Source of the DNA: a virus
Length of the DNA stretch: 64,000 nt
IMG/VR virus record: IMGVR_UViG_3300045971_000354
Coordinates: 64,001 to 128,000 of that record
Direction: 5' to 3' (one strand)
Below are positions 6,001 to 56,514 of the stretch, one piece after another. Made by a program: the position numbers and the translations under genes. Under the pieces are notes generated by a model. The model did no database searches. It was not told the origin of the DNA and saw only the letters and a list, made by a program, of their open reading frames with translations. The first letter of the stretch is position 1, and each line of letters starts with the position of its first letter.

Positions 6001-9000
6001 CAACAACTAGAGAAATTGGCAATCAGTATTTCTCACAAGTGTTTGTTGGTAATGGTATTGACTCTAATTTTAACTTAAAGTGGCTACCTCTTAACGATAA
6101 AACAACTATTTCGTTGACTAAAAATGGCATTCTACAGTTAAGTACTGATTATTCATTACTATTCTATAGTACGGCATACAAAACTCAATACGGACGAGCA
6201 AATAATTCTTACCTTAAGAAGTATGCGAGTTTGCAAATGTCGTATATTCCTGAGATTGGGGATGTTATTGAAATCACTTATCCTAAGAGTTTAGAACTAT
6301 ACACCGCAGTTGACAGAGTAGAAGATTACTATGCACCTAACGCAGGGATGCCTGGAAAAGAAATTGCACAAGTAATGAAAGGTGCAGAATATCCGGGAGT
6401 TTCGGTAGATACACTTCCACTTAACTTTGCCCAAGGTTGGTCGGGTACTGAAAGCGGCTGGGATAGTGCAGCATGGGATAATGCAGGATTAGTAGAAGGC
6501 TATTTGTCGTTTGCGACAACTGCATCGAGCCTTGCTCCTTTAACAATTCCGTTTGTTATTAATTCGGGTACACAGTTGAATGTCTATATTCAAGATATTA
6601 GCACAAACACATCTGTTGCACGAAGAATTGATGGCAGCTCTACCTCATCCTTAGTTCAAACAATTTTTGGTATTGGATCAGGTGCAATTGATAGAATTGA
6701 AGTTCCGGTTCCTGGTGCAGGATACGATGCAGCATTTCTTGATGTATTTGTAGCACCTCCGACTTCGCCGACTGGTAGAATTGCAAAAATTACTCCGAAT
6801 GTTTCAACCGGATCGATTGTTAGTTTTACTATTACCGATCAAGGAAGTGGATATCTTGTTGCTCCTGTAATTACAATTATTGAAAAACTAACTACAGGGC
6901 ATTCTACTAGCACAGTTACTATTCCTGCATTTGCTAATGCGATTATTAAGTCTGAATTTACTGCAACAAATACAACAGGTACAATTTCGTCGATACAAAT
7001 TCCTAGTAGTGTACTTACTGCTAGTACTTCATTAATTGTATTCCGCGAGTCAACTAGTGACGGTACAACGACTCCTACCGATGCCGACAGTTTAGATGCA
7101 TTAGTTTCCGGCGGCACATGGGATAAACTTACTGGTAAACTTAGTGGAGCATTAGGAGTTACTCCGGGTGATATAATTGTTGACGGCGATTCGTTCTTGT
7201 CAGCAGTTAGCAGCTATGCTCCTGAAGAATTTGTTCCAGGGCAAATTCAAGAAGCATTTGGAATTAGTGTTTATACAAAACCTCCAGTTGCTGCTCCGTT
7301 AATTGTTAATAAAAAGTATTGGGTAGACGGAACTATGTTAACTTATAAGTTAGGTACTACTCCGAGTAATCGAGATTCTGTTATTGCCACTTTCAATGGT
7401 CAAAAATTAGTTTCTAGTAGATACACTATAGACTTTGATGCTAATACTTTTACCTTTACTAATATAAATCCCGGTACCGGATGGTTAAGTTTAACTAGTA
7501 TGGGAGCAGGCACTGACTCTTTACTAAACTATACTACTGCGGTAAACGCAACTAGTTCTACAATAATTACTACCCCGGTTGCATATTCGGATGTTAAGAG
7601 TTCCTATGTAACTGTAAACGGTGTATCTATTTTAGAAAATGTAGACTATACACTAACAAGCGATAAATCTAGAGCTAAGTTTACTATAACTGCACCCGGC
7701 GTCATTCAGACATACTTGTTTAGTAAACCGTTTAAGTCATTCAGTGAAGTAACTGAGCAAATTATTATTTCAACAGGTACATCTACAACTTATGTATTAA
7801 CTCAACCTCCAGGGACAGTCGGCCCGTTCCATAACCAAGTAATTATTACAAAGAACGGATTAAGAATGTTACCTCCGGTGACTACTTATTATGAAGTTAC
7901 TAACGGACAACGGTCTTTTGATATTAGTTCGACAATTGTTTTTGATAGTGGAAAAGTTGATCTCCGACATTTAGAAGTTTATGTAAACGGAAAACGATCA
8001 AACACATTTGACTTTTGGAATTTTAATCAATCTGCAAATAAAGTTGTGTTTAAAAATGCAGCCTTAGTTGACGGTGATGTTATTGCAATTGTAGTAAAAC
8101 GAGATAACGAATACTTAATTGAGAATAATCAGTTAGAATTAATTTCTCCGTCTGCACCTAACGATGAATATCATATTACAGCGTTTACCAATCACGATCC
8201 TGATTTTATCAGAACAGAACGGTATACCGGTCGCGCTAGTAATCAATATGTTATGCAACGAAAAATAGTCGATGTTTCGTATGTATGGGTTTCTTACAAC
8301 GGTACCCCGTTGACTGCTAGCTTAGATTATAGTATTGATGCTACGAATAATGCAGTTCGAATCAGGGAAGGGATTTTTACAAGTCCCGACGATATTGTAA
8401 TTATAACAAGCTTTGCTGACTATATTCCACTTGATGTAACTGGATATAAAATCTTTAGAGATATGTTAGGTCGTACTCATTATAAGAGACTGAGTGCTCC
8501 TGATACTACTGAACTATTATTACCTTTGTCAATGGATGATGCTACTATCACTGTTAAGGACAGCAGTGTCTTAACCCCGGGACAACCTGCAAGAAATATA
8601 CCCGGAGTTGTTATGATCGATAAAGAACGTATTGAATTCTTTACAATCTCAGGGAATGTGCTCGGTCAATTGAGAAGAAGCACATTAGGAACTGCACCTA
8701 AGCCTGTGTATGATATTGGTACTTTAGTAATGGATCACGGAACAACCCAAAATGTTCCAGTTAACGAAGTTGTACAAAAGTTTGTAGTTACTGCTACTAC
8801 AACTGCTTCAGTTGTTGCAGGATATGTTTTAGATGGGATAACATTTGCTGCTAACACCCCGTATACTGATCAAGTTGAAGTACGATATGCAGGCCGCATG
8901 TTAATGAAACCGTTTATTGATCCTACAAATATTACAGTAACATACAATAACATAGCATATGATAGCGATCCTGCTCTAGATATTTTAGTAAATCCCGGAT

Positions 9001-9308
9001 TTGCAATCAATGCAGGCGGCGTACTGACCATTTCAACCAACAGCAACTTTATTCTTACAGAAGGTGCAAGATTAGAGGTTACTAAACGAATGTCTAATAT
9101 TTGGTACGATAGTCCAGCTTCAACGCTTACCCTTGCTAAAAATACAACTGCACAGGCTAAATTCTTAGCTGAAAAACCAGCAGCTTTACCGGCTGCAATT
9201 ATTTCATCAGCTCCGATTAATGTAACTGCTACTAGTGCAGTCTTGTATACAGAAACTGGCAGCATATTAACTGATGAAAATGGTAACCCATTAGAGGGCG
9301 GTATATAA
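3..9308 (+). CDS. Giant baseplate wedge/tail structural protein (5'-truncated by window edge)
   Basis: Frame is open from position 3 (KYRPYFTIF...) into the 159..9308 ORF. It has FG-GAP-like propeller repeats (FGSAIA..SSAP, FGATL..AGAP, FGASLA..VGAP) and repeated GxGY..P.I.I modules typical of myophage baseplate proteins, and lies in a tail gene block. Confidence 0.7.
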   Translation, partial: KYRPYFTIFTPFTSAFDQAEQVGGVSAPYVNWAPNTTYNIGDIVFNSDRYYRVLARHNSDTTFNKVYYQSLPYLPIVGGASVLRRTVFDTSETIINYGSEYYSVQDVDDLIMGYGKWLESKGFVFNEYNGDLDHVLDWSFSAREFLYWTTQNWAPNSIITLSPFANKLVFQSDVGVVNSITDSFYEYSLLKADGGAFPEHNFSIVRLDGVFSLSTVNTTDGIYFARLNLVQKEHALVLNNFTMFNDVVYDVESGYRQRRVKLKGFRTANWNGDFFSPGFIFDQAIINDWQKFTDYGVGEVVRFSGKYYSAPKTTPGTSAFNINQWIPLGDKPTPRLLPNFDYKINQFEDFYSLDIDNFDVGQQAMAQHLTGYTPRPYLNYIIGDPIAQYKFYQGFIRDKGSRASLNNLSKVSLNNFQTSVDFNEEWAFRIGHYGGFNTYQELEISLESNKFLENPQIIEFVPTKPIGTSNIVYYKDASDVVVKPDNFDITCVFVTTSTSNIIKLPIAGYVRFDDVSATVYNRSNILNITNNSTLLEGDTFWMGFRPDGEWDVLRLSKQPSAISDLAVYIPASSMIFSTYSSHNLAVGDLISVTKIDPAVNACYEVIEILSTTEFIVASSLTSLPSIATPINGALFVFSSSRVTTFDDIASIPYLERWKVGEKIWADPIDENDTWKVYEKNDNYQPVGNNFTDGTNQPGQNFGSAIAGSSDHKFIISSAPNYISLTSSGTVFVSYRDVLKTAPEIFSSYTLNDGLGGGYYTGNTPTLFGATLIFNQTARMVIAGAPLTSQVRSVYPGTAIVNVNGATNTGTVNQGVVKLSLLKDANSNFAEWADSTATVTVISESPATYFGASLAYSATNGRLIVGAPGSNSIYGYTVSVSTSSVSVVKSGSIVGYAGGLKFGTSLTGNLDLSMFAVTDPLHVSTLGSSGTIHVYYNNWPISSISSQSITGDDLPIPMQAGDTFASSIKMTQDGKMLIAGSPYAYDPVFGTKTGVVDIFIYNGIKFVHSQRIHASTVSLDTKFGYQVDVNDNVNSLVIAAHSQFASASATFDKYVYNDPLLSLKPVSTTFDSNSTVFYSSENNTGDSNIVHNYVKSPTGSKWVYAQDLTVPGTTATDSFGSAIFLNDNSIYVGAPGFSSVGVASNGQISIFDKTDINANSWNIFRQQEPLVDLEPIKRSITIENISEQVKDYLEIIDSVKGKILGTAAAELKYISSYDPALYNIGVDGVTVNSDANWLDEHVGELWWDTSSVKYIWYEQGDLEYRKNNWNNIFPGSTIDVYEWVRSSYLPSEWSAAENTNAGAAAGISGQPKFTNDSVVSVKQFYNSNSNSFSNVYYYWVKNKTTVPSNIPNRKIAASQISQNIANPVGSGVEFLAFISPTAVILANYKSSVITDTVNLNIGFDVINNSANRHTEWALMQENDPNSKPNWLLEKKLIDSLLGHDSINNPVPDPALPSKLKYGIGIRPRQSLFVNRREALRNIIEYSNGILLNNLITGKANFSNLLAADQLPAASTYDSIVEDIYILDLIPTKTLKTAKVSAVVDSVGKITNIIVDPLAAGAGYLTPPTITISDVGTGAEFNVNIDVQGKITSVDVIKGGTGYSTSIALTVRPYTAIVRTDSTSGGKWAKYEWDDVASTWTKTRTQNFDTSIYWKYIDWASADYSNFTIIEATVPSPYDLSELFYLSTGAYVKVQNGGDGRYLILSKTSGTGGTFDSDWNIVYSENGTIQFLDSIWNSTNTVFSWDQIVGFDVTSYDQTPDAEIKYILDALKDDIFVNEFKGYWNKLFLKAVRYALSEQKSLDWAFKTTFISVVNSAGSLDQRHTYKLQNASYYEDFLNEIKPYHTKIRKFTEVYTATDLSHSFNTDFDLPSFYDKRTLSFNTPSAYELTQYPWKAWNDNHGYGVSVINISNNGGGYTSTPIVTIIPAVGDTGAGAEAIAFISLGTVNRIIVTNPGRGYTITPTIKISGGGSTTLNSAQAYAQLGGSPVRANKVRMKFDRVSTTREIGNQYFSQVFVGNGIDSNFNLKWLPLNDKTTISLTKNGILQLSTDYSLLFYSTAYKTQYGRANNSYLKKYASLQMSYIPEIGDVIEITYPKSLELYTAVDRVEDYYAPNAGMPGKEIAQVMKGAEYPGVSVDTLPLNFAQGWSGTESGWDSAAWDNAGLVEGYLSFATTASSLAPLTIPFVINSGTQLNVYIQDISTNTSVARRIDGSSTSSLVQTIFGIGSGAIDRIEVPVPGAGYDAAFLDVFVAPPTSPTGRIAKITPNVSTGSIVSFTITDQGSGYLVAPVITIIEKLTTGHSTSTVTIPAFANAIIKSEFTATNTTGTISSIQIPSSVLTASTSLIVFRESTSDGTTTPTDADSLDALVSGGTWDKLTGKLSGALGVTPGDIIVDGDSFLSAVSSYAPEEFVPGQIQEAFGISVYTKPPVAAPLIVNKKYWVDGTMLTYKLGTTPSNRDSVIATFNGQKLVSSRYTIDFDANTFTFTNINPGTGWLSLTSMGAGTDSLLNYTTAVNATSSTIITTPVAYSDVKSSYVTVNGVSILENVDYTLTSDKSRAKFTITAPGVIQTYLFSKPFKSFSEVTEQIIISTGTSTTYVLTQPPGTVGPFHNQVIITKNGLRMLPPVTTYYEVTNGQRSFDISSTIVFDSGKVDLRHLEVYVNGKRSNTFDFWNFNQSANKVVFKNAALVDGDVIAIVVKRDNEYLIENNQLELISPSAPNDEYHITAFTNHDPDFIRTERYTGRASNQYVMQRKIVDVSYVWVSYNGTPLTASLDYSIDATNNAVRIREGIFTSPDDIVIITSFADYIPLDVTGYKIFRDMLGRTHYKRLSAPDTTELLLPLSMDDATITVKDSSVLTPGQPARNIPGVVMIDKERIEFFTISGNVLGQLRRSTLGTAPKPVYDIGTLVMDHGTTQNVPVNEVVQKFVVTATTTASVVAGYVLDGITFAANTPYTDQVEVRYAGRMLMKPFIDPTNITVTYNNIAYDSDPALDILVNPGFAINAGGVLTISTNSNFILTEGARLEVTKRMSNIWYDSPASTLTLAKNTTAQAKFLAEKPAALPAAIISSAPINVTATSAVLYTETGSILTDENGNPLEGGI

Positions 9309-33064: not shown

Positions 33065-33850
33065 CCTTAGCAACGTATTTTTCTTTACTGCGGCATCCAC
33101 TATATTCATATTCAATTCTAGATCTGCTGCAAATTTTAACAATGCAGAAGTATCTTTCGGGAAGCATGCTCCACCGAATCCATATGCTCCGTCCGGCCCC
33201 GGAACTTGCATATGACTCTTACCAATTCTAGGATCTGCTTTTACTAGTTCGGCAACCAATTTGTAATTACAATCTAATGAATTTGCCAACGCTTCTATTT
33301 CGTTCATAAACACAACCTTGGTTGCCATGAACGAATTAATTGTGTACTTTGCTAGAGATGCTTCCGCAATTGAGCAATACCGAATTGATTTTAAACTTGG
33401 CTGACTAATTTTTATTACTCGCTCTGCTTCGCGCATATACGCACTAACATTTCCACCGATGAATGCAAATTCTCCGTTGGCATAATCTTGCACTGCATTT
33501 GCCGCAGTTAAAAACTCTGGTGCATGCACTAAGTTAGGAAACCGTTCTTGTAATTTAGAATAGGTAGCCGGCGGCGCCGTGCACTTACTAATAATTACTC
33601 CTCGGTACTTTACATCATTTAGCTCTGCTAATACACTTTCCAATGGACCAGTATCGCATGTTCCGTCTGTACTTTGCGGAGTAGGAACAGATATAAAAAT
33701 TGCAGAGCAATCCTTTAGTTCTTCGTATGTTGCGTTTAATCCTTTATATGGATCACGCAAAACAACAGGCATCGTTATAGAATCAAATGACTGCTTAATT
33801 GCCCCGCCTACAAACCCTAATCCAATGATACCGATCTTTTCATTATACAT
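33047..33850 (-). CDS. UDP-glucose/GDP-mannose dehydrogenase family (short form)
   Basis: Rossmann GIIGLGFVG, FISVPTP, PEFL, K...N...ATKV.F.NE, GFGGACFPKD (catalytic Cys). Confidence 0.9.
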   Translation of the reverse strand: MYNEKIGIIGLGFVGGAIKQSFDSITMPVVLRDPYKGLNATYEELKDCSAIFISVPTPQSTDGTCDTGPLESVLAELNDVKYRGVIISKCTAPPATYSKLQERFPNLVHAPEFLTAANAVQDYANGEFAFIGGNVSAYMREAERVIKISQPSLKSIRYCSIAEASLAKYTINSFMATKVVFMNEIEALANSLDCNYKLVAELVKADPRIGKSHMQVPGPDGAYGFGGACFPKDTSALLKFAADLELNMNIVDAAVKKNTLLRLQDPK

Positions 33851-34926
33851 TATGTTATATTTCCTAAAAGTACATCTGCGTTAAAGAAATATTTAGACAA
33901 ATCTTCAGTTTGTTTTCGCAATTGTGGCAGACGTTTTATGTAATGCGTCATGGTAACAATAATGTGGTGACACAACTCTTGTCTATGTACTGTATAGCTA
34001 TCCCAATCTTTGGTCCATTCACTTGGATATTTAAATCCTTCGTGATACATTTCGGAATATGAAAGGCGATCTGGTACCATAGGTATAGCATCAACTAACG
34101 CCCCTTCGTAACATCCGATACCTAGTGTTTCTTGTAGACTTGCGCTAAACACAATCTTCGATTGACCTAGCAATGTATGATATTCTTCTTTGCTAAGTTC
34201 CTGATCTTGACAAACAATAAACTCGTACTGTGGTAATAATGTTGCAAGATCTCTAAAAATTTCAACCTGCTTTTCGGGCGCAATACGATGCGGAAACAAA
34301 ATAAGATCATGCTTTGATAAAGTTTTATATGGAGTAAGAGTTTCTTCCATATACTCCATTGGCCAACCAGTTTGCACAATTTTTTTATCGTATTCTGGTT
34401 TCCACCCTGTGATACGAGTCTTGCCATCTTGTAATAAATTATTTACAAACATTTCAATATGAAACTTAGTTGCAAAGTAGTTGAAATCTATTGCATGATA
34501 CAACGCTTTTTCGGTATGCCTAACCCAAGGAGCATTTCCAATCAATCGACCTAAAAAGTCTTGAGGATCATAACTGCCGGCGTGCCATAGTGCATGAATA
34601 GTAATTGGGATTTCCAATAACTCACTCATATACTTTAGGTTAATTATACCAGGATGCCATGCGTCAGTAAAAATAAAGTGGTCGCCCCCACGAATGGATC
34701 CGTCGCAAAACATACGGCCCATTTGCTCAACCTGGTTAGACTTATATACATTAGTCCCACCAAAATTGAGAAAAGCACCAGGAGTGGTAGCAGCAGGAAT
34801 ATCAGTAGGACCGGAAATAATTTGAACATTGAAGCCAGCCTTCTTAAAGAGAGCAGGTACACGAGACTTCCATTGTCCTGTGTACCTGGTACTCACCGCC
34901 TCTATATCGACGATGAAAATTGTCAT
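33850..34926 (-). CDS. GT-B fold glycosyltransferase
   Basis: FPHRIAPEKQ, SASLQETLGI...EG...P..LSY.E resembles the GT-B EX7E-type donor-binding region. Confidence 0.7.
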   Translation of the reverse strand: MTIFIVDIEAVSTRYTGQWKSRVPALFKKAGFNVQIISGPTDIPAATTPGAFLNFGGTNVYKSNQVEQMGRMFCDGSIRGGDHFIFTDAWHPGIINLKYMSELLEIPITIHALWHAGSYDPQDFLGRLIGNAPWVRHTEKALYHAIDFNYFATKFHIEMFVNNLLQDGKTRITGWKPEYDKKIVQTGWPMEYMEETLTPYKTLSKHDLILFPHRIAPEKQVEIFRDLATLLPQYEFIVCQDQELSKEEYHTLLGQSKIVFSASLQETLGIGCYEGALVDAIPMVPDRLSYSEMYHEGFKYPSEWTKDWDSYTVHRQELCHHIIVTMTHYIKRLPQLRKQTEDLSKYFFNADVLLGNIT

Positions 34927-42902: not shown

Positions 42903-43742
42903 TTATTTTTTCTTTGCTGCTAAAGTTTCGATTAAGACATTTTCCAACCAAACTTCGTAGGATTCTTTCATCTTTCTTCTTCGCAATGGGTCAACAGCTT
43001 CTTTCTGAGCAGCTTTTTGTTTCTTTTTGTAATCAGCACTTGCTTTATCTGCGGCTACTTCTTTCTTAGAAGGTTTACCTTTTTGCAACTTAGGATCATA
43101 CAACGGCCCATTCCAATCGTTAGCTTCGCCTAAGCCGCGCTTTTTCATTTCACGATCGACTACTCGATTTTGTAATGCTTGTGGGCTGTGTGGTTCTGCT
43201 GGACCATCGACATCCTTGTATATTTTGCCCTTAAGATCTAAGTTCTTAATTGTTTTGTCATCGTGGCCTTTGTTACGCTTGACAATTTCGCCAGGCTTTC
43301 CTTGAGCTCCGCCCCAACCTTGCATACCACGCTTCACTTGCTTCACGCCACGCTTGATTGTATCGCCAATTCCTTCTTCTTGACTTCCGCCCTCTGGAAG
43401 ACCACCGTGCTTTACTTTGCTCCACTTTTGATCAGATCCTTGTGGAGTCATTACCGGACCTTCTGCCACTGTGCTACGATCGCACGTATTTCTCTTGCTG
43501 CAAGTACTGCATTCACATGTTTTAGTGGCACAAGATCTACCTTCTTCGAGTTGTCTTGCTAATTCAATTTGCAAGCTTTCTGCATATTCTTTATTCTTAT
43601 GCTTTACATCGCCTTGCTTTAATGCTTTCTTCTTATCTTTATGAGCACCAGCCGCTCCACTTTTTGCTTTTGCAGCCATAACTTGCTGATTAGGATTTCT
43701 GGGTTTCAGAGAAGGAATTTCGATTTTATTTTTGTTGCTCAT
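42903..43742 (-). CDS. Basic low-complexity protein, probable head-internal protein
   Basis: Start MSNKNK; Lys-rich segments separated by YAE|S, LEE|G, VAE|G, QEE|G, LGE|A, MKE|S. Confidence 0.6.
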   Translation of the reverse strand: MSNKNKIEIPSLKPRNPNQQVMAAKAKSGAAGAHKDKKKALKQGDVKHKNKEYAESLQIELARQLEEGRSCATKTCECSTCSKRNTCDRSTVAEGPVMTPQGSDQKWSKVKHGGLPEGGSQEEGIGDTIKRGVKQVKRGMQGWGGAQGKPGEIVKRNKGHDDKTIKNLDLKGKIYKDVDGPAEPHSPQALQNRVVDREMKKRGLGEANDWNGPLYDPKLQKGKPSKKEVAADKASADYKKKQKAAQKEAVDPLRRRKMKESYEVWLENVLIETLAAKKK

Positions 43743-44460
43743 TTGGCACCTTTTTACAATTATCAAAGTGATATTTTATCATATTATTTAGTCCACCTTC
43801 TTTGTCACAATGCGGACAGATTACACGTTTTTGAGGACCTGCCTTTTTACCTCGCACCGGGTTGTCTGATCTCAATTTTATTTCACTCATTAATTTTTTT
43901 GTTTCGTCTGAATGTTTTTTTCCTAAATTTGGCGGATTGAATTTTTGTGTTTCTTTTCGTTTAAGCTTAGTAGCTTCTGATTGCTTGTGACCAGTTTTTC
44001 TTGCTAACTTATTTTTATTAGCTATATCCGGATCTGGATGATTTTTGCAGTTATCGAAGTGATACCGAGATAACGCATTTCTTCCACCTTCTTTGTTACA
44101 ATGCGGGCAAGATATAATGCTGTGCGGTTTTTTGTTAACGATTTTAAATCGCTCGCCGGTAAGTTGACCGACCCGGCGCCTTATCCATCCGAACGATTTG
44201 TTGTTTGATCGATTACCTGCAGGATCAAAACACATAAGATGTGCAGCGTATACTAGCTTGGGGTCGCTGGGATAGATTTTGACTAATAGTTGATGAGCTA
44301 GGAAATGCTCTTCGGCAGTTAATTTGACTAAATTTGTTTTGCAGTTAGTTCCACCTACACACCGAGGAATAATGTGATGGTTTTCGGAATACACGTTAAC
44401 TGGCAATATTCGGATACGTGCGCGATCTATGAGGAGAGTGTAGTGCTTTTTATAATTCAT
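43726..44460 (-). mobile_element. Free-standing HNH homing endonuclease with CPHC zinc-finger and NUMOD3 repeats
   Basis: ENHHIIPRC.GG....NLV.LTAEEHF.AH.LL; two CPHC.KEGG...YHFDNCK; HSDETKKLMS. Confidence 0.85.
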
Positions 44461-44461
44461 A

Positions 44462-44484
44462 AAATAAGTTATTAAACTTATTTA
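44462..44484 (-). promoter_or_regulatory. Late promoter overlapping a perfect 9-bp inverted repeat at the HNH start
   Basis: AAATAAGTT-atta-AACTTATTT; TAAATA at 44479-44484. Confidence 0.5.
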
Positions 44485-44508
44485 TCTTATTGCGACAAAG
44501 GTGCGGAG

Positions 44509-44682
44509 TTATCTCTTTATTACGTTGGTAGGTTTTTTCTTCTTTGCTTTGCTACTCGTTGCCCCTGGGCCACCATTTAAAAATCCGTTTCCGTAGGCGC
44601 CTGTTGCAACGTTGCTTGCAATATTTGCAGATGAGATAGCTCCTTCACTTGCGGATTCTTTGAATAGTTCTTTTATTTTCAT
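44509..44682 (-). CDS. 57-aa probable internal head protein (not in ORF track)
   Basis: MKIKELFKE|SASEGAISSANIA...KAKKKKPTNVIKR; ATGA overlap with upstream gene. Confidence 0.7.
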   Translation of the reverse strand: MKIKELFKESASEGAISSANIASNVATGAYGNGFLNGGPGATSSKAKKKKPTNVIKR

Positions 44683-45062
44683 TTCTTACTCTTCTTCATC
44701 CAATTTGGAGTTGGACTATGCTTGTGTGTATCTTCGGGCTCGGAACTTTTAGACCAAGGTGTAACTCGTTTATGATCAGACGGTACAGTATTATACGCTG
44801 CCTGCATCATATTATCTTCTTCTTTTGTATAAGGATGTGTTGTATTATATTTTTCTACCCAACTCGACGCATCTACACCATCAATTTTTTTAGTGTCTTG
44901 ACCATGCGCCATTGCAACAGCCATTCCTATTCTATTCATATGATATATACGATCGTACCCACCGGTATCACGTGCACGGGACACGCCCTTCTGCACCGCA
45001 ACATGGTGGTCATGCATCTTTCCCTCGGGAGCGGTTTCTACAATAAGTTCTTTAATCTTCAT
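44679..45062 (-). CDS. Probable internal head protein
   Basis: N-terminus MKIKELIVE resembles the T4 capsid-targeting sequence. Confidence 0.65.
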   Translation of the reverse strand: MKIKELIVETAPEGKMHDHHVAVQKGVSRARDTGGYDRIYHMNRIGMAVAMAHGQDTKKIDGVDASSWVEKYNTTHPYTKEEDNMMQAAYNTVPSDHKRVTPWSKSSEPEDTHKHSPTPNWMKKSKK

Positions 45063-45346
45063 ACTGGTTTTTCACCTGTTAGTCCCGGTCTACTAAACCA
45101 AAGTTTGATGTATTCATCAGATCCTGGCTTAATATTATGTTGACGCATGAGTTCAACCTTGCTTACTTCATTAGTTGTATTTATAGGTTTTTGTTTAGCC
45201 TTGTATTCTGCAAGTCTTGCTTCAGCACCTAACCCGCCCATTAACTGGCCAATTTTTAGTTCGTGTATAGGATCATCGGGAGCAAGATAACAATCGTCGT
45301 CGCTATCTTTGCTTAGGTTATCACTAGTTATGTAGTATTGCTTCAT
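45059..45346 (-). CDS. Hypothetical protein
   Basis: 95 aa, ATGA coupling both sides. Confidence 0.65.
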   Translation of the reverse strand: MKQYYITSDNLSKDSDDDCYLAPDDPIHELKIGQLMGGLGAEARLAEYKAKQKPINTTNEVSKVELMRQHNIKPGSDEYIKLWFSRPGLTGEKPV

Positions 45347-48300
45347 TTCTGCTTTAGTTGTTCTAGTAAGCTAGCGATTTGAGTTTCCCATCCTTCGCCA
45401 ATTTTAACACCTTTTGACTCTACGCTTTCTGCACCTACTAAGTCACCTGCTTTTGCCCCACGCTTCTGATTGCGTAGTTGTCCAGCTGTTCCTAGCTTGT
45501 TCTTATCAGATCCGGAAAATGCACTCTTAGGTAGCATTGCTTCGGATTTTTTACCAGTAGCAGCATCGTGTCTAGCTTGCATTTTAGCAGTAAATGCAGG
45601 AGTTGCTGTTGACTTACTTTTCGTGATATGTGGACTATTCTTTTGAGTATTGCCCGGTAGCGATCTAGTCATTACTCCCGTTGCTGCTGCAATTGGAAAT
45701 GATTCGGTTTTCTTTGGCTCTTCCTTTTTAGGAATGCTCGACGGAATAACAGAACGTGATTGACGTGCTGCTGTCTTACCTTGCGAGTTTTGTACTGCTT
45801 TTGCTAATCTCAGTTTAGCAGAAGTTGACTCTGCTATATTTTCTGATATACTTTTTCGAATAGTAATATCATTTGGTTTAGATAACATTAACATAGATAG
45901 TGCTTTATCAAGAGAAGTTGCATCAGGAAAAAACGCCGAAGTCATTATTAAATTACCATTATACGATGCAAGAGGTTGTCGTGGCCATACATCTTCTGGA
46001 TCATTGTTAAATTCTAATTGTATTATTTTTTTGTCAGTTGGCTCTCTATAAATCTTTGTAATTTGTTTAGGAGTTCTGAATCCGAATAATTCTGCGTTAT
46101 CTTGTGATAATTGTAAGTTTAAAATAGATACTGATGTCCCTACATTAATCTGCATATTTTTACGCTGATCTAATTTTTTAAATGTTTCTAGAAATTGTTT
46201 TCCCGAATCTACTACTTTCGAAATACCTTCGAACACAGCTGAACTTAGCCGCGTAAAATGTGTGTGTGGCCCAATTGGCACTCCGCATTTTCTCATCTCC
46301 GGAATAAGCGATTTTTGGACATAATTAACAATTTCGTCTACAGTTAATTCTTTTACATAGAATGCAGTATACGATTCGGCCATTCTAGGATCGCCTTTTA
46401 ATTTTAATGCAGCATCTACTTGCTTTGCGTGTATCTTTTCTTCAGCACTTCGCTTTCCATTTACTCTATTAATACCTTTTCGTAATGAAGTAGGAGCAGG
46501 AGAATCTTTAAGATCCTTCTTGTACTTCAGTAGCTTATCAATAGTAAGTTCGGATATCTTACCTTCACCCATTGGCACTTTAACTCCGCGCTTCTGTAAT
46601 TCTGCTTGCAACGCTTGCAGCTTGTTTGGTGCACGGGCAATAGCATTGCGAATATCGCCTGCTATCTTGCTAGGTAATTTACTTAACACATCATTTACGA
46701 TCTGTTCAGCGTGACCTGCTTGTTGTCCGATGGCTGGATTCTTAGGAGACTTTGCTACCGGCTCGTCGTCATAATCATCCTCTTCTCCGGATGCTTCTAA
46801 CTCGCTTAGATAATTTCTAAAGTCTTGTTTCGCTTTAATCCACAACTGTGCCTTGCGAGCTAATTCTTGATCGCCGATCTTCTGTCCCATTTGTGCAAGA
46901 ATTTCGGGTAACTGATCTGCTAGTGCACTAAAGTTTTTAGGAAGTGTTCCTAGAAAATCATTTAACGGTGCAGCATGTCTCGGACTTTGTTGCGCCAAGT
47001 GGCGTAATTCTTTACCTAACTTGTTAAAGTAAAAATTATTGTACCAACGAGATGCAGCACCAGCGGCAACCATTTGAAATCCTTTTAGATCTCCTTTACT
47101 TGCATAAAACTGTTTTGCCATCTGTTTCATTGTTGCATACAATTGAAGAACTGGCTCCCCGATATCATTTGAAATTGCGCGAAGTGTAGATTTTAATTCT
47201 GGACCCTCATCGACAATATAGTTACCTATTCCAACTCCTGCCATCCTGTCTTGGTATTCTTTCACGGTATGAGTTATTATTTTATTTTTCAATGACCACT
47301 CGCTGAATTTTAGCCCTAACATTGTTTTAAATTTTTCTAGGTCGTTGATTGTTGGAAAAAATAATACAGTTTTGAGTAAGTCGCCTTCTACTGAATTACC
47401 TTCTGGAAATTGTTTCTTAACACCGTTTATTTCAAAAATTACCTTACCAGAAGTATACCTAAGTAATTTATATGGTTGATCAAAATGTGCAACACTTAAT
47501 AGGTGTGCAGGCAACATTGAAGTTATCGAAGTGTATACATACGATTTGCCTACTATCGGAGCATTACTATATATTTTTAAGAAATTTTGTAAATTTTTGT
47601 AATCGGCGCTGTTTTCAAATAACTTAGGAGTTTTTAGTAGTTCTTGTCGTAGGTCCTCTTCTTGCTCTTCCCATATTGGCTCTAATGGAATATTATCAAA
47701 ATCTTCAGAAATAATTGCCTGGAAATTAGTTAAGTGCGGCATAGTTAGCGCATTAAACAATCGCATCTCTGCAACTGGTGATCCTGCTGGTGTTACTGCC
47801 GGAGCAGCAGGCGCCGCAGGCTGTTGCGGAATATCTTGTACTCCCATCCCTTTCTTTGTTAGGTCCATTAAGTGCTTAATCCAATCAGCCCCTAACTTTT
47901 TAATATCAAATCCTTGGCTCCACACTTGAAATTGTTGCTCAGGAGTTGCATTTGGATCTTTTAAAATATTGCGAAGCTTAGTAAAGCTCATTCCAGTTCC
48001 GCGAGGTGTAACTTCTAAACTAACCTTGACATGTTCGTATCCTTGGAACTTATTAACAGCTTTCATTAATGCATTAGCAATGTTCATATTAGCGCGGTCT
48101 TCACCCACCATAATAATAATGTTGTCGTATCTTGGCGGCTTGCCCGGCAATGGATTAATTAACTCATGCTTGATTTTTTGTATTAACGATCCGCTATCTT
48201 GTACCGTACTAATATTGCTTGCATACTGTGGATACATTTTATGCCAGGTCTGTACTTTAACCGCTGGCGGAATAGGATCGTCTTTGCCTTCTGCATTTCC

Positions 48301-51000
48301 AATAAACAAATACGGATCTCCACCTACCTCTTTAGCTTTGTTAATTGTGTAATCAAATAATTGCTCGTGACCAATGTGTCCTACAAAACTTCCAATAGCA
48401 ACTACTGCGGTTTTACTAGAATTTTCACGAGGGCGTTCTGTTCTTGCAGTTGCCTTTGCTGCTAGTTTATCTGCAATAACTTTACGTTGTTCGGTACTAG
48501 TTACTTTAACAGGTCCAAGGCGAGTGTTTAACACTATGCCTTCGTAGTCTTGACCTAATATGTCTTTACCTACAATATTAGGATCTTCGGCAATTGCCTT
48601 TTCTAATGCAAGTTTAACTGGCTGTAATGCCGCAGCAACATCTTGCTTTCGCTTTAGACTACCGGGACTCTTATCAGCTAACATTGCCTTAAATTGTGAT
48701 ATGTTTTCTATTGGAGGAACTAACGCTGTTACATCTAACGCCTCGTTTTGTGTTAAGCTATTATCAATAAACATCACACTACCTAACTTTCCTACGCTAA
48801 GTAGTTCTTTTATGAACTCGTTTGCATTTGGTAATTCTTCGCCAGTATCTGCTTCTACTACTCGAAACGGAACAAGTGCAAGTTGGATACCTGATGGTAA
48901 CTTGTCATAATGTATTCCTACAAACTTTAGCTTTCCTTCCGGAGTTTCAGTTGCAAACGGCAAATATAATACTTCACAAGTTACTTGCTTGTTAAGTAAA
49001 AATTCAGGACCTAACTTGCTGTCGACTAATTTAACAGCATTCATCATCTCAGTGAATAAATCGTCAAACAGTTGAGCTCTTCCTAAAATTTCTGGATCAG
49101 TTGTTCCTTTCTTTTGATGATAGTCTACAAACCCTGCTTGATACCGAGGTGGTGTGTTACTTGTGCCCATGAAAGGCTTCCCGGCAGCATCCTTTCCAAA
49201 GCGCCCGCCAAATCCGTCGACTTTAACATTTAGTGGCATATTCTCCAACTTAAATGCACCATTGCCGTCGTGCAACTCATCTAACAAATCTAAGAAATCT
49301 ATAGTCTTTAGATCTCGTAGATGTGGCATTCCTTTTCTGAGTTGTGCTTTTACTTCTGGTTGCGGAATAGGATCCTTATTATGTTCAGTTCCGATAGCCT
49401 CTGCAACCGGTTGCTTTGCAGCAGACTTTGCTTTGAACTGTTCTTCGTAATTCATTGCTTGCTGCACTGCTTGCTTCCTTGTTTCTTGTCCATTTGCGAG
49501 TTTTAATGGCTTATGACCGTCACCGCCTAATACCATTATATCAAGTGCTGCTAGCTTTGTATCACGATCCCTAACTGGATCATCTTTTGTAATCATTTGG
49601 GCTTGCTGCCCAAATAAAATATCAATAAAATGTTGTGCAACTGCTTCGCGTTGTGTATCATCTAAATATCTGTTCATTAGATCTATTGTACCAACAAAGC
49701 TTTGTTGTAATTTTAAATCCTGAGCTTTTGGTTTTACACCGTAAACTTTCTGAAACTGCGATGAAAGATTTTGATCGTAGCTGCGTTGTGAAGGTTCGAG
49801 CAACTGCATAACAGGAATGCCGTCTTTTTCCATCGGTTGATTTGTTTCCGGATCGATGTATGGCTGATACTTTGAACTTAGACCACCGCCTTGTGCGCTT
49901 GTTACTGCAAACGAATAATCTGCATCAGTAACTGGTTCAGGGCTAATTTTTGTGCTCTTCTTTAAAACACGAGCAACATATTTTGTACTTGCTTGTGATG
50001 TAGGCAATGCACGGTTAATCCATTTGTGGAATACACCCTTGATGCCTGATGCCATATCGTCGTAATGAGAACTATGACTGTATGCAAACCAGTCAGATGG
50101 TTCATTCTTTTCTTTGTTATATGGTCCAAGCTCGTAGTCAATTTGAATCTTAACTGGCGGCTCATCTAGCATCCATAATGCAGATAGCGATGAATTAAAC
50201 CCGACAAATGTTCCATTACCGATCTTTTGACCTACAATAGATTTCAACCATGCAGCTACATCGTCGCCAATTTCTTGATCAACTTGCGTGTCGATGTCGC
50301 CGACTTTTACTTTCTTTAGCTTATTCATAAAGTCTTGAGTGCTAACACTCTTGACATCGAAAAACTGTAAACTGCTTCCACTGAACATTTTTCCAGATGC
50401 GATTAGCTTCGGATCCCAAATAGGACGTCCGTATGTTGCAGCAAACGAATCATTTTGCGCAGAAAGTAGTTCTCTGATCTTTCCTACCATGAAATCACGA
50501 TTATGCAATTTCAAATCAATTTCTTCGGCCTCGTGTTCTCCGGGCATACCTTGCCAACCGGGGCTTGTGTTTGATAAATTTCCACCTTCGCTAATTGCTT
50601 TTGCACTTAAAAATTCAGGATGCAGTTTATTAAACTCTCGCATAATAATGCCCGCGGCGATGTGAGCATCGTTTTCAGTTTGTGATCCTGTACTTGGATC
50701 CATTTTATCACCGTCAACGAATTGCTTTGCATGATGTAACTCGTGAGCTAATGTACGTAGACTATCTACTGGTTGACGATTACCTATAGCTAACTGAATT
50801 GTATAATTGTCTGGATTAAACTGCCCCATTGTTGGTTGCTGGGAATCTTGAATCTTCTTCTTCAAGATAATAGTCGGTAGCTTATCTAATTTTGTAATTT
50901 TCTTTGCAATAGGTAAGAATACGCGCAATATATCGTTGAAATCGTATTCACGAGATTCAGTTATCTTATTAAACTGAGTAACAAAATCATTTAATTTCAT
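45343..51000 (-). CDS. 1,885-aa multidomain polyprotein: zincin-like HExxH, Pol-beta-like NTase, ligase-like KxDG, HIGH nucleotidyltransferase, further modules
   Basis: RTLAHELHH; GSS...GDIDTQVD...QID; NVKVDG...YEGIVL..VK; GSFVGHIGH...VGEDR...SFTKLR. Confidence 0.7.
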   Translation of the reverse strand: MKLNDFVTQFNKITESREYDFNDILRVFLPIAKKITKLDKLPTIILKKKIQDSQQPTMGQFNPDNYTIQLAIGNRQPVDSLRTLAHELHHAKQFVDGDKMDPSTGSQTENDAHIAAGIIMREFNKLHPEFLSAKAISEGGNLSNTSPGWQGMPGEHEAEEIDLKLHNRDFMVGKIRELLSAQNDSFAATYGRPIWDPKLIASGKMFSGSSLQFFDVKSVSTQDFMNKLKKVKVGDIDTQVDQEIGDDVAAWLKSIVGQKIGNGTFVGFNSSLSALWMLDEPPVKIQIDYELGPYNKEKNEPSDWFAYSHSSHYDDMASGIKGVFHKWINRALPTSQASTKYVARVLKKSTKISPEPVTDADYSFAVTSAQGGGLSSKYQPYIDPETNQPMEKDGIPVMQLLEPSQRSYDQNLSSQFQKVYGVKPKAQDLKLQQSFVGTIDLMNRYLDDTQREAVAQHFIDILFGQQAQMITKDDPVRDRDTKLAALDIMVLGGDGHKPLKLANGQETRKQAVQQAMNYEEQFKAKSAAKQPVAEAIGTEHNKDPIPQPEVKAQLRKGMPHLRDLKTIDFLDLLDELHDGNGAFKLENMPLNVKVDGFGGRFGKDAAGKPFMGTSNTPPRYQAGFVDYHQKKGTTDPEILGRAQLFDDLFTEMMNAVKLVDSKLGPEFLLNKQVTCEVLYLPFATETPEGKLKFVGIHYDKLPSGIQLALVPFRVVEADTGEELPNANEFIKELLSVGKLGSVMFIDNSLTQNEALDVTALVPPIENISQFKAMLADKSPGSLKRKQDVAAALQPVKLALEKAIAEDPNIVGKDILGQDYEGIVLNTRLGPVKVTSTEQRKVIADKLAAKATARTERPRENSSKTAVVAIGSFVGHIGHEQLFDYTINKAKEVGGDPYLFIGNAEGKDDPIPPAVKVQTWHKMYPQYASNISTVQDSGSLIQKIKHELINPLPGKPPRYDNIIIMVGEDRANMNIANALMKAVNKFQGYEHVKVSLEVTPRGTGMSFTKLRNILKDPNATPEQQFQVWSQGFDIKKLGADWIKHLMDLTKKGMGVQDIPQQPAAPAAPAVTPAGSPVAEMRLFNALTMPHLTNFQAIISEDFDNIPLEPIWEEQEEDLRQELLKTPKLFENSADYKNLQNFLKIYSNAPIVGKSYVYTSITSMLPAHLLSVAHFDQPYKLLRYTSGKVIFEINGVKKQFPEGNSVEGDLLKTVLFFPTINDLEKFKTMLGLKFSEWSLKNKIITHTVKEYQDRMAGVGIGNYIVDEGPELKSTLRAISNDIGEPVLQLYATMKQMAKQFYASKGDLKGFQMVAAGAASRWYNNFYFNKLGKELRHLAQQSPRHAAPLNDFLGTLPKNFSALADQLPEILAQMGQKIGDQELARKAQLWIKAKQDFRNYLSELEASGEEDDYDDEPVAKSPKNPAIGQQAGHAEQIVNDVLSKLPSKIAGDIRNAIARAPNKLQALQAELQKRGVKVPMGEGKISELTIDKLLKYKKDLKDSPAPTSLRKGINRVNGKRSAEEKIHAKQVDAALKLKGDPRMAESYTAFYVKELTVDEIVNYVQKSLIPEMRKCGVPIGPHTHFTRLSSAVFEGISKVVDSGKQFLETFKKLDQRKNMQINVGTSVSILNLQLSQDNAELFGFRTPKQITKIYREPTDKKIIQLEFNNDPEDVWPRQPLASYNGNLIMTSAFFPDATSLDKALSMLMLSKPNDITIRKSISENIAESTSAKLRLAKAVQNSQGKTAARQSRSVIPSSIPKKEEPKKTESFPIAAATGVMTRSLPGNTQKNSPHITKSKSTATPAFTAKMQARHDAATGKKSEAMLPKSAFSGSDKNKLGTAGQLRNQKRGAKAGDLVGAESVESKGVKIGEGWETQIASLLEQLKQK

Positions 51001-51380
51001 ATCTTATACTCGCCTTTGATAATGTCTTTGTGGTGATGGTCTGCTAGGCGTTTGCATAACTCGATAAAAAACTCTTTAGTAAATGTATCAGCTGGATGCC
51101 CCTTCACTTCTTTATCCTTGTAATATTCTAAGCAGCCTTCTTTGGCCATTGGCAACCATCTCTTCCAATCGTGCCCGCTTATTTTGTCATCCTTCTTGTG
51201 CGCTGCTTTAATTTCCTTTGCATGTGGGAGGAAATGTTTCTTGTGTAGATCGTCGCTATCCAATATATGCCAAAATACAGCATCTGCAATTTTGCGTTCT
51301 TCTTCTTTTCCTAGGGTATCGGGATTACTATCCGGGTCAGAATCGTGTTTTATATTGCCAAAAAATTCAAATAGTCTCAT
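50997..51380 (-). CDS. Hypothetical protein, probable head-associated
   Basis: MRLFEFF N-terminus; late motif TAAATA at 51408-51413. Confidence 0.65.
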   Translation of the reverse strand: MRLFEFFGNIKHDSDPDSNPDTLGKEEERKIADAVFWHILDSDDLHKKHFLPHAKEIKAAHKKDDKISGHDWKRWLPMAKEGCLEYYKDKEVKGHPADTFTKEFFIELCKRLADHHHKDIIKGEYKI

Positions 51381-51416
51381 ATTAGCTCACAAGTAGTTAT
51401 TACCCTATATTTAGCG

Positions 51417-56147: not shown

Positions 56148-56154
56148 TGTAATA

Positions 56155-56183
56155 ATTATACTACCTTTGAAGGACTATGTCAA
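56155..56183 (-). promoter_or_regulatory. Perfect sigma70 promoter TTGACA-17-TATAAT, 7 nt before dnaJ ATG (leaderless)
   Basis: TTGACA tagtccttcaaaggtag TATAAT tattaca ATG. Confidence 0.85.
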
Positions 56184-56196
56184 TGATCCGGCTCTG

Positions 56197-56514
56197 TTAC
56201 TTTACCATTGTGTCTACATTCGGAGAGTTCATTGCTGTAATCTTCTCTTGGCCTCTACTCCATGCAGCAACACCTAGAACTGCACCCATTGCCATGTGAA
56301 AAAATCCACCAGACTTCAATGTAATAGGATCCCACTGAACTAGTGTGTTATGAACAACTCCTTGTGCGCCAGTCCATAAGATTGGAAACACAATGAAATC
56401 AAATATGCAAACAGCCATGTACATCCACCCCATTGCAGGACGCCATTTTGCAGACATCCAATCAGATGACGGTAATGAACCGACGATATGTGTATTAGGA
56501 TCTATTTCTGCCAT
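56197..56514 (-). CDS. Holin-like membrane protein (3TM/GTA-holin-like)
   Basis: WRPAMGWMY...C.FDF...GAVLGVAAWSRGQEK; next to spanins. Confidence 0.65.
   Translation of the reverse strand: MAEIDPNTHIVGSLPSSDWMSAKWRPAMGWMYMAVCIFDFIVFPILWTGAQGVVHNTLVQWDPITLKSGGFFHMAMGAVLGVAAWSRGQEKITAMNSPNVDTMVK

Follow-up and report, generated by a model that had tools for sequence, protein, structure and literature searches.

A 1,885-residue polyprotein of an uncultured T4-like jumbo phage as probable head-packaged cargo with protease-type sites at its module junctions

Described packaged proteins and the polyprotein of this locus

The capsid targeting sequence of phage T4 is a propeptide of 10 to 19 amino acids (aa) that attaches to the core of the prohead and is cleaved off by the protease gp21 after L/I-x-E (PMC9026906); the sequence itself is quoted in PMC8442874. 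Here, we analyzed a window of 64,000 nucleotides (bases 64001 to 128000 of IMG/VR record IMGVR_UViG_3300045971_000354, a linear viral contig of 143,463 bp estimated by CheckV to be about 40% complete), which contains an open reading frame (ORF) for a protein of 1,885 aa, referred to below as the polyprotein. This protein is probably a chain of head-packaged cargo that is cut at the [LIVM]-x-E sites located at its junctions. The family-B DNA polymerase encoded on the contig has its nearest counterparts in Rak2-like and Atu_ph07-like jumbo phages, and the source is an uncultured T4-like jumbo phage with several giant ORFs on the same contig.

The T4 proteins processed by gp21, namely, IPI, IPII, IPIII, and Alt, resemble the polyprotein in having a short leader with hydrophobic positions that ends in [LI]-x-E and in being encoded in the same genome as a gp21-family protease. 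The 15-aa leader of the polyprotein, which ends in I-T-E, fits the definition of a T4-type propeptide ending in L/I-x-E. In both cases the cargo is diverse, fast evolving, and thought to be active at injection, and small leader-tagged ORFs adjoin it. However, the T4 cargo resides in separate genes and is cut once (Alt at both ends), whereas six or seven modules and their leaders share one frame of 1,885 aa here, in which each junction bears a site. Furthermore, the T4 proteins are small basic inhibitors, whereas the cargo of the polyprotein appears enzyme-like (nucleotidyltransferases and ligase-like domains).

Another related group comprises the polyvalent proteins (Iyer, Burroughs, Anand, de Souza, and Aravind, 2017), which occur in phages and conjugative elements. 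According to that article (PMC5512222), they join 2 to 15 biochemically disparate domains, which also occur solo, in one polypeptide, and they are predicted to be packaged, processed in cis by a zincin-like peptidase, and injected. The analogy to RNA-virus polyproteins is drawn there as well; the comparison with eukaryotic-virus polyproteins made in an earlier, sequence-based annotation of our window (the original prediction) had thus been published before. The polyprotein has the corresponding multidomain composition, with zincin-like, Pol-beta-like, RNA-ligase-like, and HxGH folds plus three further modules, and solo and reshuffled forms exist. Its relatives carry lysozyme, LysM, RelA/SpoT-HD, GNAT, ParB, deaminase, and sigma-70 region 4 domains; lysozyme, RelA/SpoT, GNAT, and ParB are among the domains listed for phage polyvalent proteins in PMC5512222. 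The polyvalent-protein model differs in its embedded cis-acting peptidase, whereas the junctions studied here carry the word of a trans-acting morphogenetic protease and the spacers are leader-like. Text searches of PMC5512222 returned neither protease-word junctions nor leader-like spacers, and the term "prohead" solely in a reference title. In the literature searched, we did not find a description of junctions that bear a T4-type morphogenetic protease word regardless of the presence of a zincin domain, nor of leader-like spacers.

Two further systems are comparable in part. In phiKZ, 201phi2-1, and SPN3US (proteases gp175 and gp245), many internal head proteins are likewise cut after Glu by a gp21-related protease and have multisite propeptides, but the motif is S/A/G-x-E. 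For SPN3US, all identified cuts other than the self-cleavage of the protease yield N-terminal propeptides (PMC10052503) and, unlike the cuts proposed below, do not part a chain of unrelated enzymes. In jumbo phages, pairs of RlaP, a Pol-beta nucleotidyltransferase, and an RNA ligase have been proposed to restore and reseal cleaved tRNA (PMC7824862). The polyprotein similarly places a Pol-beta-type transferase beside an RNA-ligase-fold domain bearing the KxDG lysine motif, but here the pair is fused, is accompanied by an HxGH transferase, and is apparent capsid cargo.

Glutamate sites at the module junctions

The original prediction had proposed that the ORF is divided at x-x-E sites followed by G, A, or S into about ten independent effectors, and it named structure models, motif enrichment, and comparison of orthologues as checks. 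The ORF is real, and all 13 motif groups are located where they had been placed, namely, at E15, E138, E534, E1078, E1099, E1265, E1479/1484, E1542, E1720/1724, E1766, E1820, E1858/1861, and E1869; E1248 is an additional junction site that had been overlooked. The motif itself had to be redefined. There are 23 occurrences of Glu with G, A, or S next to it on the P1' side, compared with 23.4 expected from composition, and P1' is not restricted to these residues, as R, Q, or M is found at the E1078 site. The conserved determinant consists of a hydrophobic P3 residue and Glu at P1 ([LIVM]-x-E). Comparison with the other ORFs of the genome revealed a merely ordinary density of this word in the polyprotein. 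Since the motif counts are ordinary overall and the placement of the sites is nonrandom, the signal is positional.

The claim that domain boundaries coincide with Glu sites was borne out by three independent methods: steps in homologue coverage together with the ends of high-scoring segment pairs (HSPs), linkers in AlphaFold models, and an insertion relative to the closest homologue. The boundaries set independently in this manner are E138, E534, E1078, E1099, E1248, E1265, E1479, approximately E1542, E1720/1724, E1766, E1820, and E1858-1861. They delimit six or seven folded modules plus short peptides, instead of about ten effectors (modules A to G in Table 1).

The AlphaFold model of aa 1 to 1095, which was built on 100 sequences, has a mean predicted local distance difference test (pLDDT) score of 88.7. 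The only segments with a pLDDT below 50 are aa 9-18, 136-139, 531-546, and 1059-1095, and each of these holds exactly one [LIV]-x-E (E15, E138, E534, and E1078, respectively). All four disordered linkers of this model thus carry a site; they account for 6% of the length and contain 4 of its 13 [LIV]-x-E sites, compared with about 0.8 expected. In a second model (aa 1075 to 1885), module E (aa 1265-1476, pLDDT above 90) lies between two breaks, aa 1255-1264 and aa 1477-1488, corresponding to E1265 and E1479/1484. Module G is resolved in this model as well; there is a break at aa 1535-1552 (E1542), and the tail is disordered from aa 1740 onward.

When 5.8 billion proteins were searched, at least 488 relatives of 1,036 to 3,299 aa emerged. 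Common to all of them are aa 136-1090, whereas aa 1-135 are present in about a fifth and aa 1265-1480 in about a third; the remainder is rare or shuffled. Among 119 homologues, the positions at which HSPs begin or end cluster at aa 129-138, 529-547, 1054-1115, 1260-1265, 1470-1498, 1707-1731, 1758-1775, 1816-1824, and 1855-1873. When 120 members were compared all against all with BLAST, 35.5% of the internal homology breakpoints were within 3 aa of an [LIVM]-x-E, compared with 8.9% of random positions, although these breakpoints are not independent, as the sequences of the family are related. The control motifs [LIVM]-x-D, -K, and -Q showed no excess at the breakpoints of the same 120 members. 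The phiKZ-type motif was equally unremarkable, with [SAG]-x-E within 3 aa of 10.0% of the breakpoints and 9.9% expected by chance, and junctions of this type are not supported.

The junction sites are also conserved. Allowing an offset of up to 8 aa in the alignment, a site was found in 100% (E138), 87% (E534), 86% (E1078), 100% (E1265), and 97% (E1479) of the relatives, compared with a mean of 18% for random core positions, and the flanking sequences are merely 28 to 54% identical. P3 at these five sites is always L, I, V, or M, and P1' depends on the junction (G at E138; A, S, or N at E534; R, Q, or M at E1078). In most relatives with module A, the site at the end of the leader is kept as [I/T]-x-E. 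The words located within folded domains are mostly poorly kept (5 to 57%).

Gain of cargo in frame at Glu sites, another element of the original prediction, is supported by the comparison of orthologues. Residues 1095-1248 are missing from the closest relative (P0002, 89% identical), which has a single L-T-E at the place where the polyprotein contains module D with I-S-E on its N-terminal side and V-K-E on its C-terminal side. Module D is present in two further proteins, where it is likewise flanked by sites. P0046 and P0059 have insertions of 170 and 217 aa, respectively, exactly at E534. Irrespective of its neighbor, module E is preceded by [LIV]-x-E and terminates in M-[AG]-E, and module G ends in [IV]-x-E in the relatives. 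Among cultured phages, megablast with the ORF gave no match and tblastn matched single modules only.

The solo homologues were retrieved by an exhaustive HMMER search with the core against 1.84 billion representatives (E values up to 0.001). A total of 822 proteins matched the core, many of which consist of module B (about 350 to 380 aa), the ligase-like domain (about 290 to 350 aa), or the HxGH domain alone. Solo B proteins start either with a short leader that ends in [LIV]-x-E right before an invariant G-G-N or with Met directly on G-G-N. Of the 177 relatives in which B is the first module, 152 have a leader of 5 to 20 aa ending in Glu, 21 are leaderless, and 4 are odd. P3 in the 152 leaders is L (89), I (56), or V (7), without exception. 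Similar leaders are found on solo ligase-like proteins, solo module E proteins, and HxGH transferases. In most relatives, a leader-like spacer lies between two Glu sites after the core, and flanked internal copies of leaders occurred 58 times in the family, compared with 0.8 per shuffle. These internal spacers may be read as leaders of once-separate genes that were retained upon fusion.

Probable packaging and cleavage by a maturation protease

A gp21-family protease (Peptidase_S77, PF03420; 89 bits, cutoff of 27) is encoded in the same genome at G000:36508-36933, where G000 denotes coordinates on the whole contig. The head module comprises, in this order, the portal protein, a very acidic 350-aa protein, the gp21-family protease (211 aa), a scaffold-like protein of 363 aa, and the major capsid protein (391 aa). 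The density of [LIVM]-x-E is 6.9 per 100 aa in the scaffold and 4.7 in the protease, and the major capsid protein has an L-V-E near residue 41. No PF03420 match was obtained in five related IMG/VR fragments, which are just 12 to 21% complete and hence uninformative.

Virion association has been reported for one member of the family. Module B is 26% identical over 346 aa (E value of 1e-26) to the product of gene 1-56 of Campylobacter phage vB_CcoM-IBB_35, the leader of which ends in I-L-E before G-G-N. This product is listed, with 17% coverage, among the proteins of purified virions identified by electrospray ionization tandem mass spectrometry (Carvalho et al., 2012; PMC3322345, supplement).

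Concerning transcription, TAAATA is located within 60 nt upstream of 30 of the 113 genes of the whole contig, with about 3 expected, and it precedes most structural operons. It is probably the late promoter of the source phage, a variant of the T4 TATAAATA. The exact T4 late-promoter octamer is not enriched in the window (4 occurrences, 7 expected). A late-promoter-like sequence, CTAAATAT, lies 34 nt upstream of the translationally coupled 127-aa ORF that precedes the polyprotein gene (Table 1). Late expression of the polyprotein from an internal promoter would fit these sequences, on thin evidence.

On this basis we infer packaging, cleavage, and injection of the polyprotein, which may proceed as follows. 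Each unit would once have consisted of a short N-terminal capsid-targeting leader ending in [LIV]-x-E and an enzyme-like module, and such units would elsewhere be separate internal proteins. The polyprotein gene would be transcribed late, and the chain would be tethered through its leader or leaders to the prohead scaffolding core. The gp21-family serine protease would then cleave after Glu at exposed [LIVM]-x-E linker sites. The predicted products are a zincin-like peptidase, a Pol-beta-type nucleotidyltransferase, an RNA-ligase-like/NMNAT-like double enzyme, three further modules, and several short, mostly basic peptides. The large pieces would remain in the head and enter the host along with the DNA, and gain and loss of cargo would involve whole cassettes and take place at the Glu sites.

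A number of observations weigh against packaging and cleavage. The data on vB_CcoM-IBB_35 show virion presence for the family, not cleavage. The word [LIVM]-x-E is not enriched overall (1.75 per 100 aa, ordinary for the genome). E575, E967, and E1282, all inside folded domains, are as conserved as the junction sites; presumably they are conserved for structural reasons, and because of them, conservation alone is no marker of a cleavage site. The polyprotein itself lacks the hydrophobic P3 at E1766, E1820, and E1858, although most of the relatives shown have it at the E1820 and E1858 sites. The quality of the second structure model is low except in modules E and G (mean pLDDT of 62 overall). 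The neighbors of the polyprotein gene are chaperone genes and genes of the replication or early type (DNA polymerase, Clp-like ATPase, and peptide deformylase), and the head module is about 73 kb away. TAAATA has just six bases and also precedes some nonstructural genes. Lastly, a chain of 210 kDa exceeds any cargo for which we found packaging reported in the literature.

The ordinary motif density and the conservation of some internal sites would also suit an uncleaved multidomain enzyme, either cytoplasmic or in the virion, in which the [LIVM]-x-E words are mere conserved features of linkers or domain ends. The three nucleotidyl-transfer folds could form one repair machine, and the N4 virion RNA polymerase is a giant protein that is packaged unprocessed, as stated in PMC5512222. 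We consider such an enzyme unlikely, as it leaves unexplained why the same three-residue word is found at junctions of unrelated modules with any neighbor, why solo homologues either have a removable-looking leader ending in the word or start exactly after it, why leader-like spacers with a site on either side persist between modules, and why the word matches what is recognized by a protease family with a member in the same genome. Self-processing in cis by the zincin-like module A, in place of the prohead protease, would match the processing proposed for polyvalent proteins: module A has HExxH and a zincin-like fold, and zincin-like peptidases are described as the hub domain of polyvalent proteins and as proposed releasers of the other domains (PMC5512222). 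Yet the junction sites are kept in the family while module A is found in about a fifth of the relatives, module A itself is bounded by the same sites (E15 and E138), and the rule of a hydrophobic P3 and Glu at P1 is that of gp21. We know of no zincin with this rule and judge processing by module A to be quite improbable. Chance would imply that Glu is common in linkers and that the sites of the original prediction happened to fall near boundaries; E followed by G, A, or S does occur at the expected frequency, and about 34% of random positions are within 3 aa of some Glu (110 Glu in 1,885 aa). It is contradicted by the fourfold excess of [LIVM]-x-E at breakpoints, with none for the control motifs, by the exclusive occurrence of L, I, or V at P3 of the 152 leaders, and by the 86 to 100% conservation of junction sites inside poorly conserved linkers, and has almost nothing left to recommend it.

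Given a packaged and cleaved chain, a broader proposal can be made, which we regard as tentative and rather doubtful. Cassettes composed of a leader and a module and delimited by protease sites may be the unit in which capsid cargo evolves across a large, uncultured clade of T4-like jumbo phages: adjacent genes for internal proteins would fuse in frame, their leaders would be kept as double-sited spacers, any number of cargos would ride on one chain, and the maturation protease would free them. The invariant core, a Pol-beta transferase followed by an RNA-ligase-like/NMNAT-like enzyme, would then be an injected kit for RNA-end repair or nucleotide-based counter-defense that acts before phage gene expression; this host function is a guess. 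If the packaging and cleavage inferred above hold true, there would be a simple natural rule for loading many different proteins into a capsid, in which a single targeting leader suffices, every junction has a short protease word, and cassettes are freely exchanged; this could be a natural template for multicargo packaging in engineered T4 heads. It would also join the T4 internal proteins and their targeting sequence with the polyvalent proteins of mobile elements, which have so far been treated apart, and would provide the latter with a concrete, testable processing enzyme. Hundreds of proteins of uncultured phages, along with solo relatives in cultured Campylobacter phages and cyanophages, would become candidate injected enzymes, including a possible RNA-repair kit that precedes gene expression.

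Modules, neighboring genes, and promoters

The features of the polyprotein and its vicinity are compiled in Table 1. Searched as a whole against Pfam, the polyprotein gave matches below the threshold only.

Table 1. Position of the polyprotein, its modules, and adjacent elements in the 64,000-nucleotide window (P0001, polyprotein; other P numbers, members of its family)
Feature	Position	Strand	Remarks
Whole polyprotein ORF (P0001)	45343..51000	-	1885 aa + stop
N-terminal leader, aa 1-15, ending I-T-E, capsid-targeting-like	50956..51000	-	pLDDT below 50 at aa 9-18
Module A, aa 16-138, small zincin-like (HExxH) metallopeptidase fold	50587..50955	-	Coverage step; ends at E138
Module B, aa 139-534, Pol-beta-type nucleotidyltransferase-like	49399..50586	-	Invariant columns; solo homologues; ends at E534
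Module C, aa 535-1078, RNA-ligase-like (KxDG; aa 550-845) + PPAT/NMNAT-like HxGH nucleotidyltransferase (aa 860-1055)	47767..49398	-	Fold matches; ends at E1078
Spacer peptide, aa 1079-1099, resembling N-terminal leaders	47704..47766	-	Flanked by E1078 and E1099
Module D, aa 1100-1248, rare	47257..47703	-	Flanked by E1099 and E1248; not in 89%-identical P0002
Short conserved peptide, aa 1249-1265, ending V-D-E (E1265)	47206..47256	-	Relatives and comparison with P0002
Module E, aa 1266-1479, all-helical	46564..47205	-	pLDDT above 90; ends M-G-E (E1479)
Segment F, aa 1480-1542, basic, low-confidence, ending M-A-E (E1542)	46375..46563	-	Second model
Module G, aa 1543-1720, alpha/beta	45841..46374	-	C-terminal [IV]-x-E kept in relatives
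Disordered tail, aa 1721-1885, short conserved peptide cassettes (about aa 1725-1766, 1821-1858, 1862-1885)	45346..45840	-	Cassettes at other positions in relatives
Upstream 127-aa ORF	50997..51380	-	Stop overlaps polyprotein start (ATGA); leader-like N-terminus; conserved neighbor
Late-promoter-like CTAAATAT	51407..51414	-	34 nt upstream of 127-aa ORF
Downstream 127-aa ORF	44679..45062	-	N-terminal leader ending I-V-E; conserved neighbor

In the AlphaFold model, module A has the HExxH motif and an order of secondary structure elements that matches zincins (aa 21-126). It matches the fold of 1oz9 (Z score of 8.2, aa 19-125) and an IrrE-N-like entry in BFVD (43% identity); its Pfam match, DUF6782, is weak and below the cutoff.

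Module B has the invariant residues GS, DxD, and a further acidic pair (D/E), which are the hallmark of Pol-beta-type transferases, and an atlas lead pointed to PF01909. No match was obtained with the module B profile against the PDB sequences (E values up to 10), with six solo B proteins against Pfam (E values up to 1), or with the Pfam RlaP family (PF10127) in the genome (E values up to 10); module B was accordingly not assigned to the latter family. In the fold searches, matches to the ligase-like and HxGH domains prevailed and module B was barely probed, so that novelty of its fold cannot be claimed. All 37 aligned B domains, whether solo or fused, share an invariant G-G-N behind the predicted cleavage Glu, and leaderless forms have this motif right after Met; a free Gly at the N-terminus could be important for the enzyme.

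In the ligase-like part of module C, K-V-D-G is found within aa 590-603. This domain (aa 549-845) is most similar to nick-sealing RNA ligases (Z scores of 9.4 to 11.1), and the HxGH part has fold matches of the PPAT/NMNAT type (Z scores of 12 to 13.7). Module C also has a PHROG cytidyltransferase match. There is no Glu site between its two parts. An HxGH domain is also found in the "cytitidyltransferase" of Synechococcus phage S-SSM7 (SSSM7_194, L034 841-2223; T4-GC 190, shared among T4-like cyanophages), in which a near-T4 leader ending in L-T-E is followed by a basic low-complexity stretch and then by the HxGH domain. This protein may be an unrecognized capsid-packaged enzyme of cultured cyanophages; a literature search linking it to virion proteomes returned nothing usable.

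Module E occurs in about a third of the relatives and as solo leader-tagged proteins, and its fold search gave generic helical-bundle matches alone (Z scores below 8). The cassettes of the type seen in the tail have about 25 to 45 aa, are strongly conserved and mostly basic, and are bounded by Glu sites; their positions vary in P0011, P0015, P0037, P0054, P0057, and others. Examples include a cassette that starts with A-M-L-P-K-S and ends with D-L-V-G-E, another around R-M-S-A-A-V-K-L, and a C-terminal one with C-W-K-G-Y...N-N-C that has the appearance of a zinc knuckle. The cassettes may be peptides that bind DNA or the core.

The order Clp-like ATPase, 221-aa, 155-aa, and 127-aa ORFs, polyprotein, and 95-aa and 127-aa ORFs is found in most of 25 related IMG/VR loci. 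A near-consensus sigma-70 promoter (TTGACA, 17 nt, TATAAT; window positions 56148-56200, minus strand) precedes a 271-aa ORF, the N-terminus of which reads like a DnaJ J domain and which matches unnamed PHROGs only. This ORF heads a leftward run composed of peptide deformylase, the Clp-like ATPase (761 aa), and the polyprotein cluster. Two paralogous homing-endonuclease genes (phrog_655) are located just downstream of the polyprotein cluster (window positions 43726-44460, minus strand) and beside the major capsid gene (G000 33229-33972, minus strand).

Elsewhere on the contig, an ORF of 4,427 aa (window positions 3-9308, plus strand, continuing upstream; G000 60025-73308) lies directly before a row of tail-fibre-like genes encoding 386, 517, 217, 412, 649, 691, and 751 aa, the last four of which share an N-terminal domain (phrog_15511, phrog_14394). 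A 221-aa ORF close to the head and tail genes (G000 44172-44837, minus strand) has a late-promoter word upstream, and because its leader ends in I-L-E, it is another candidate packaged protein.

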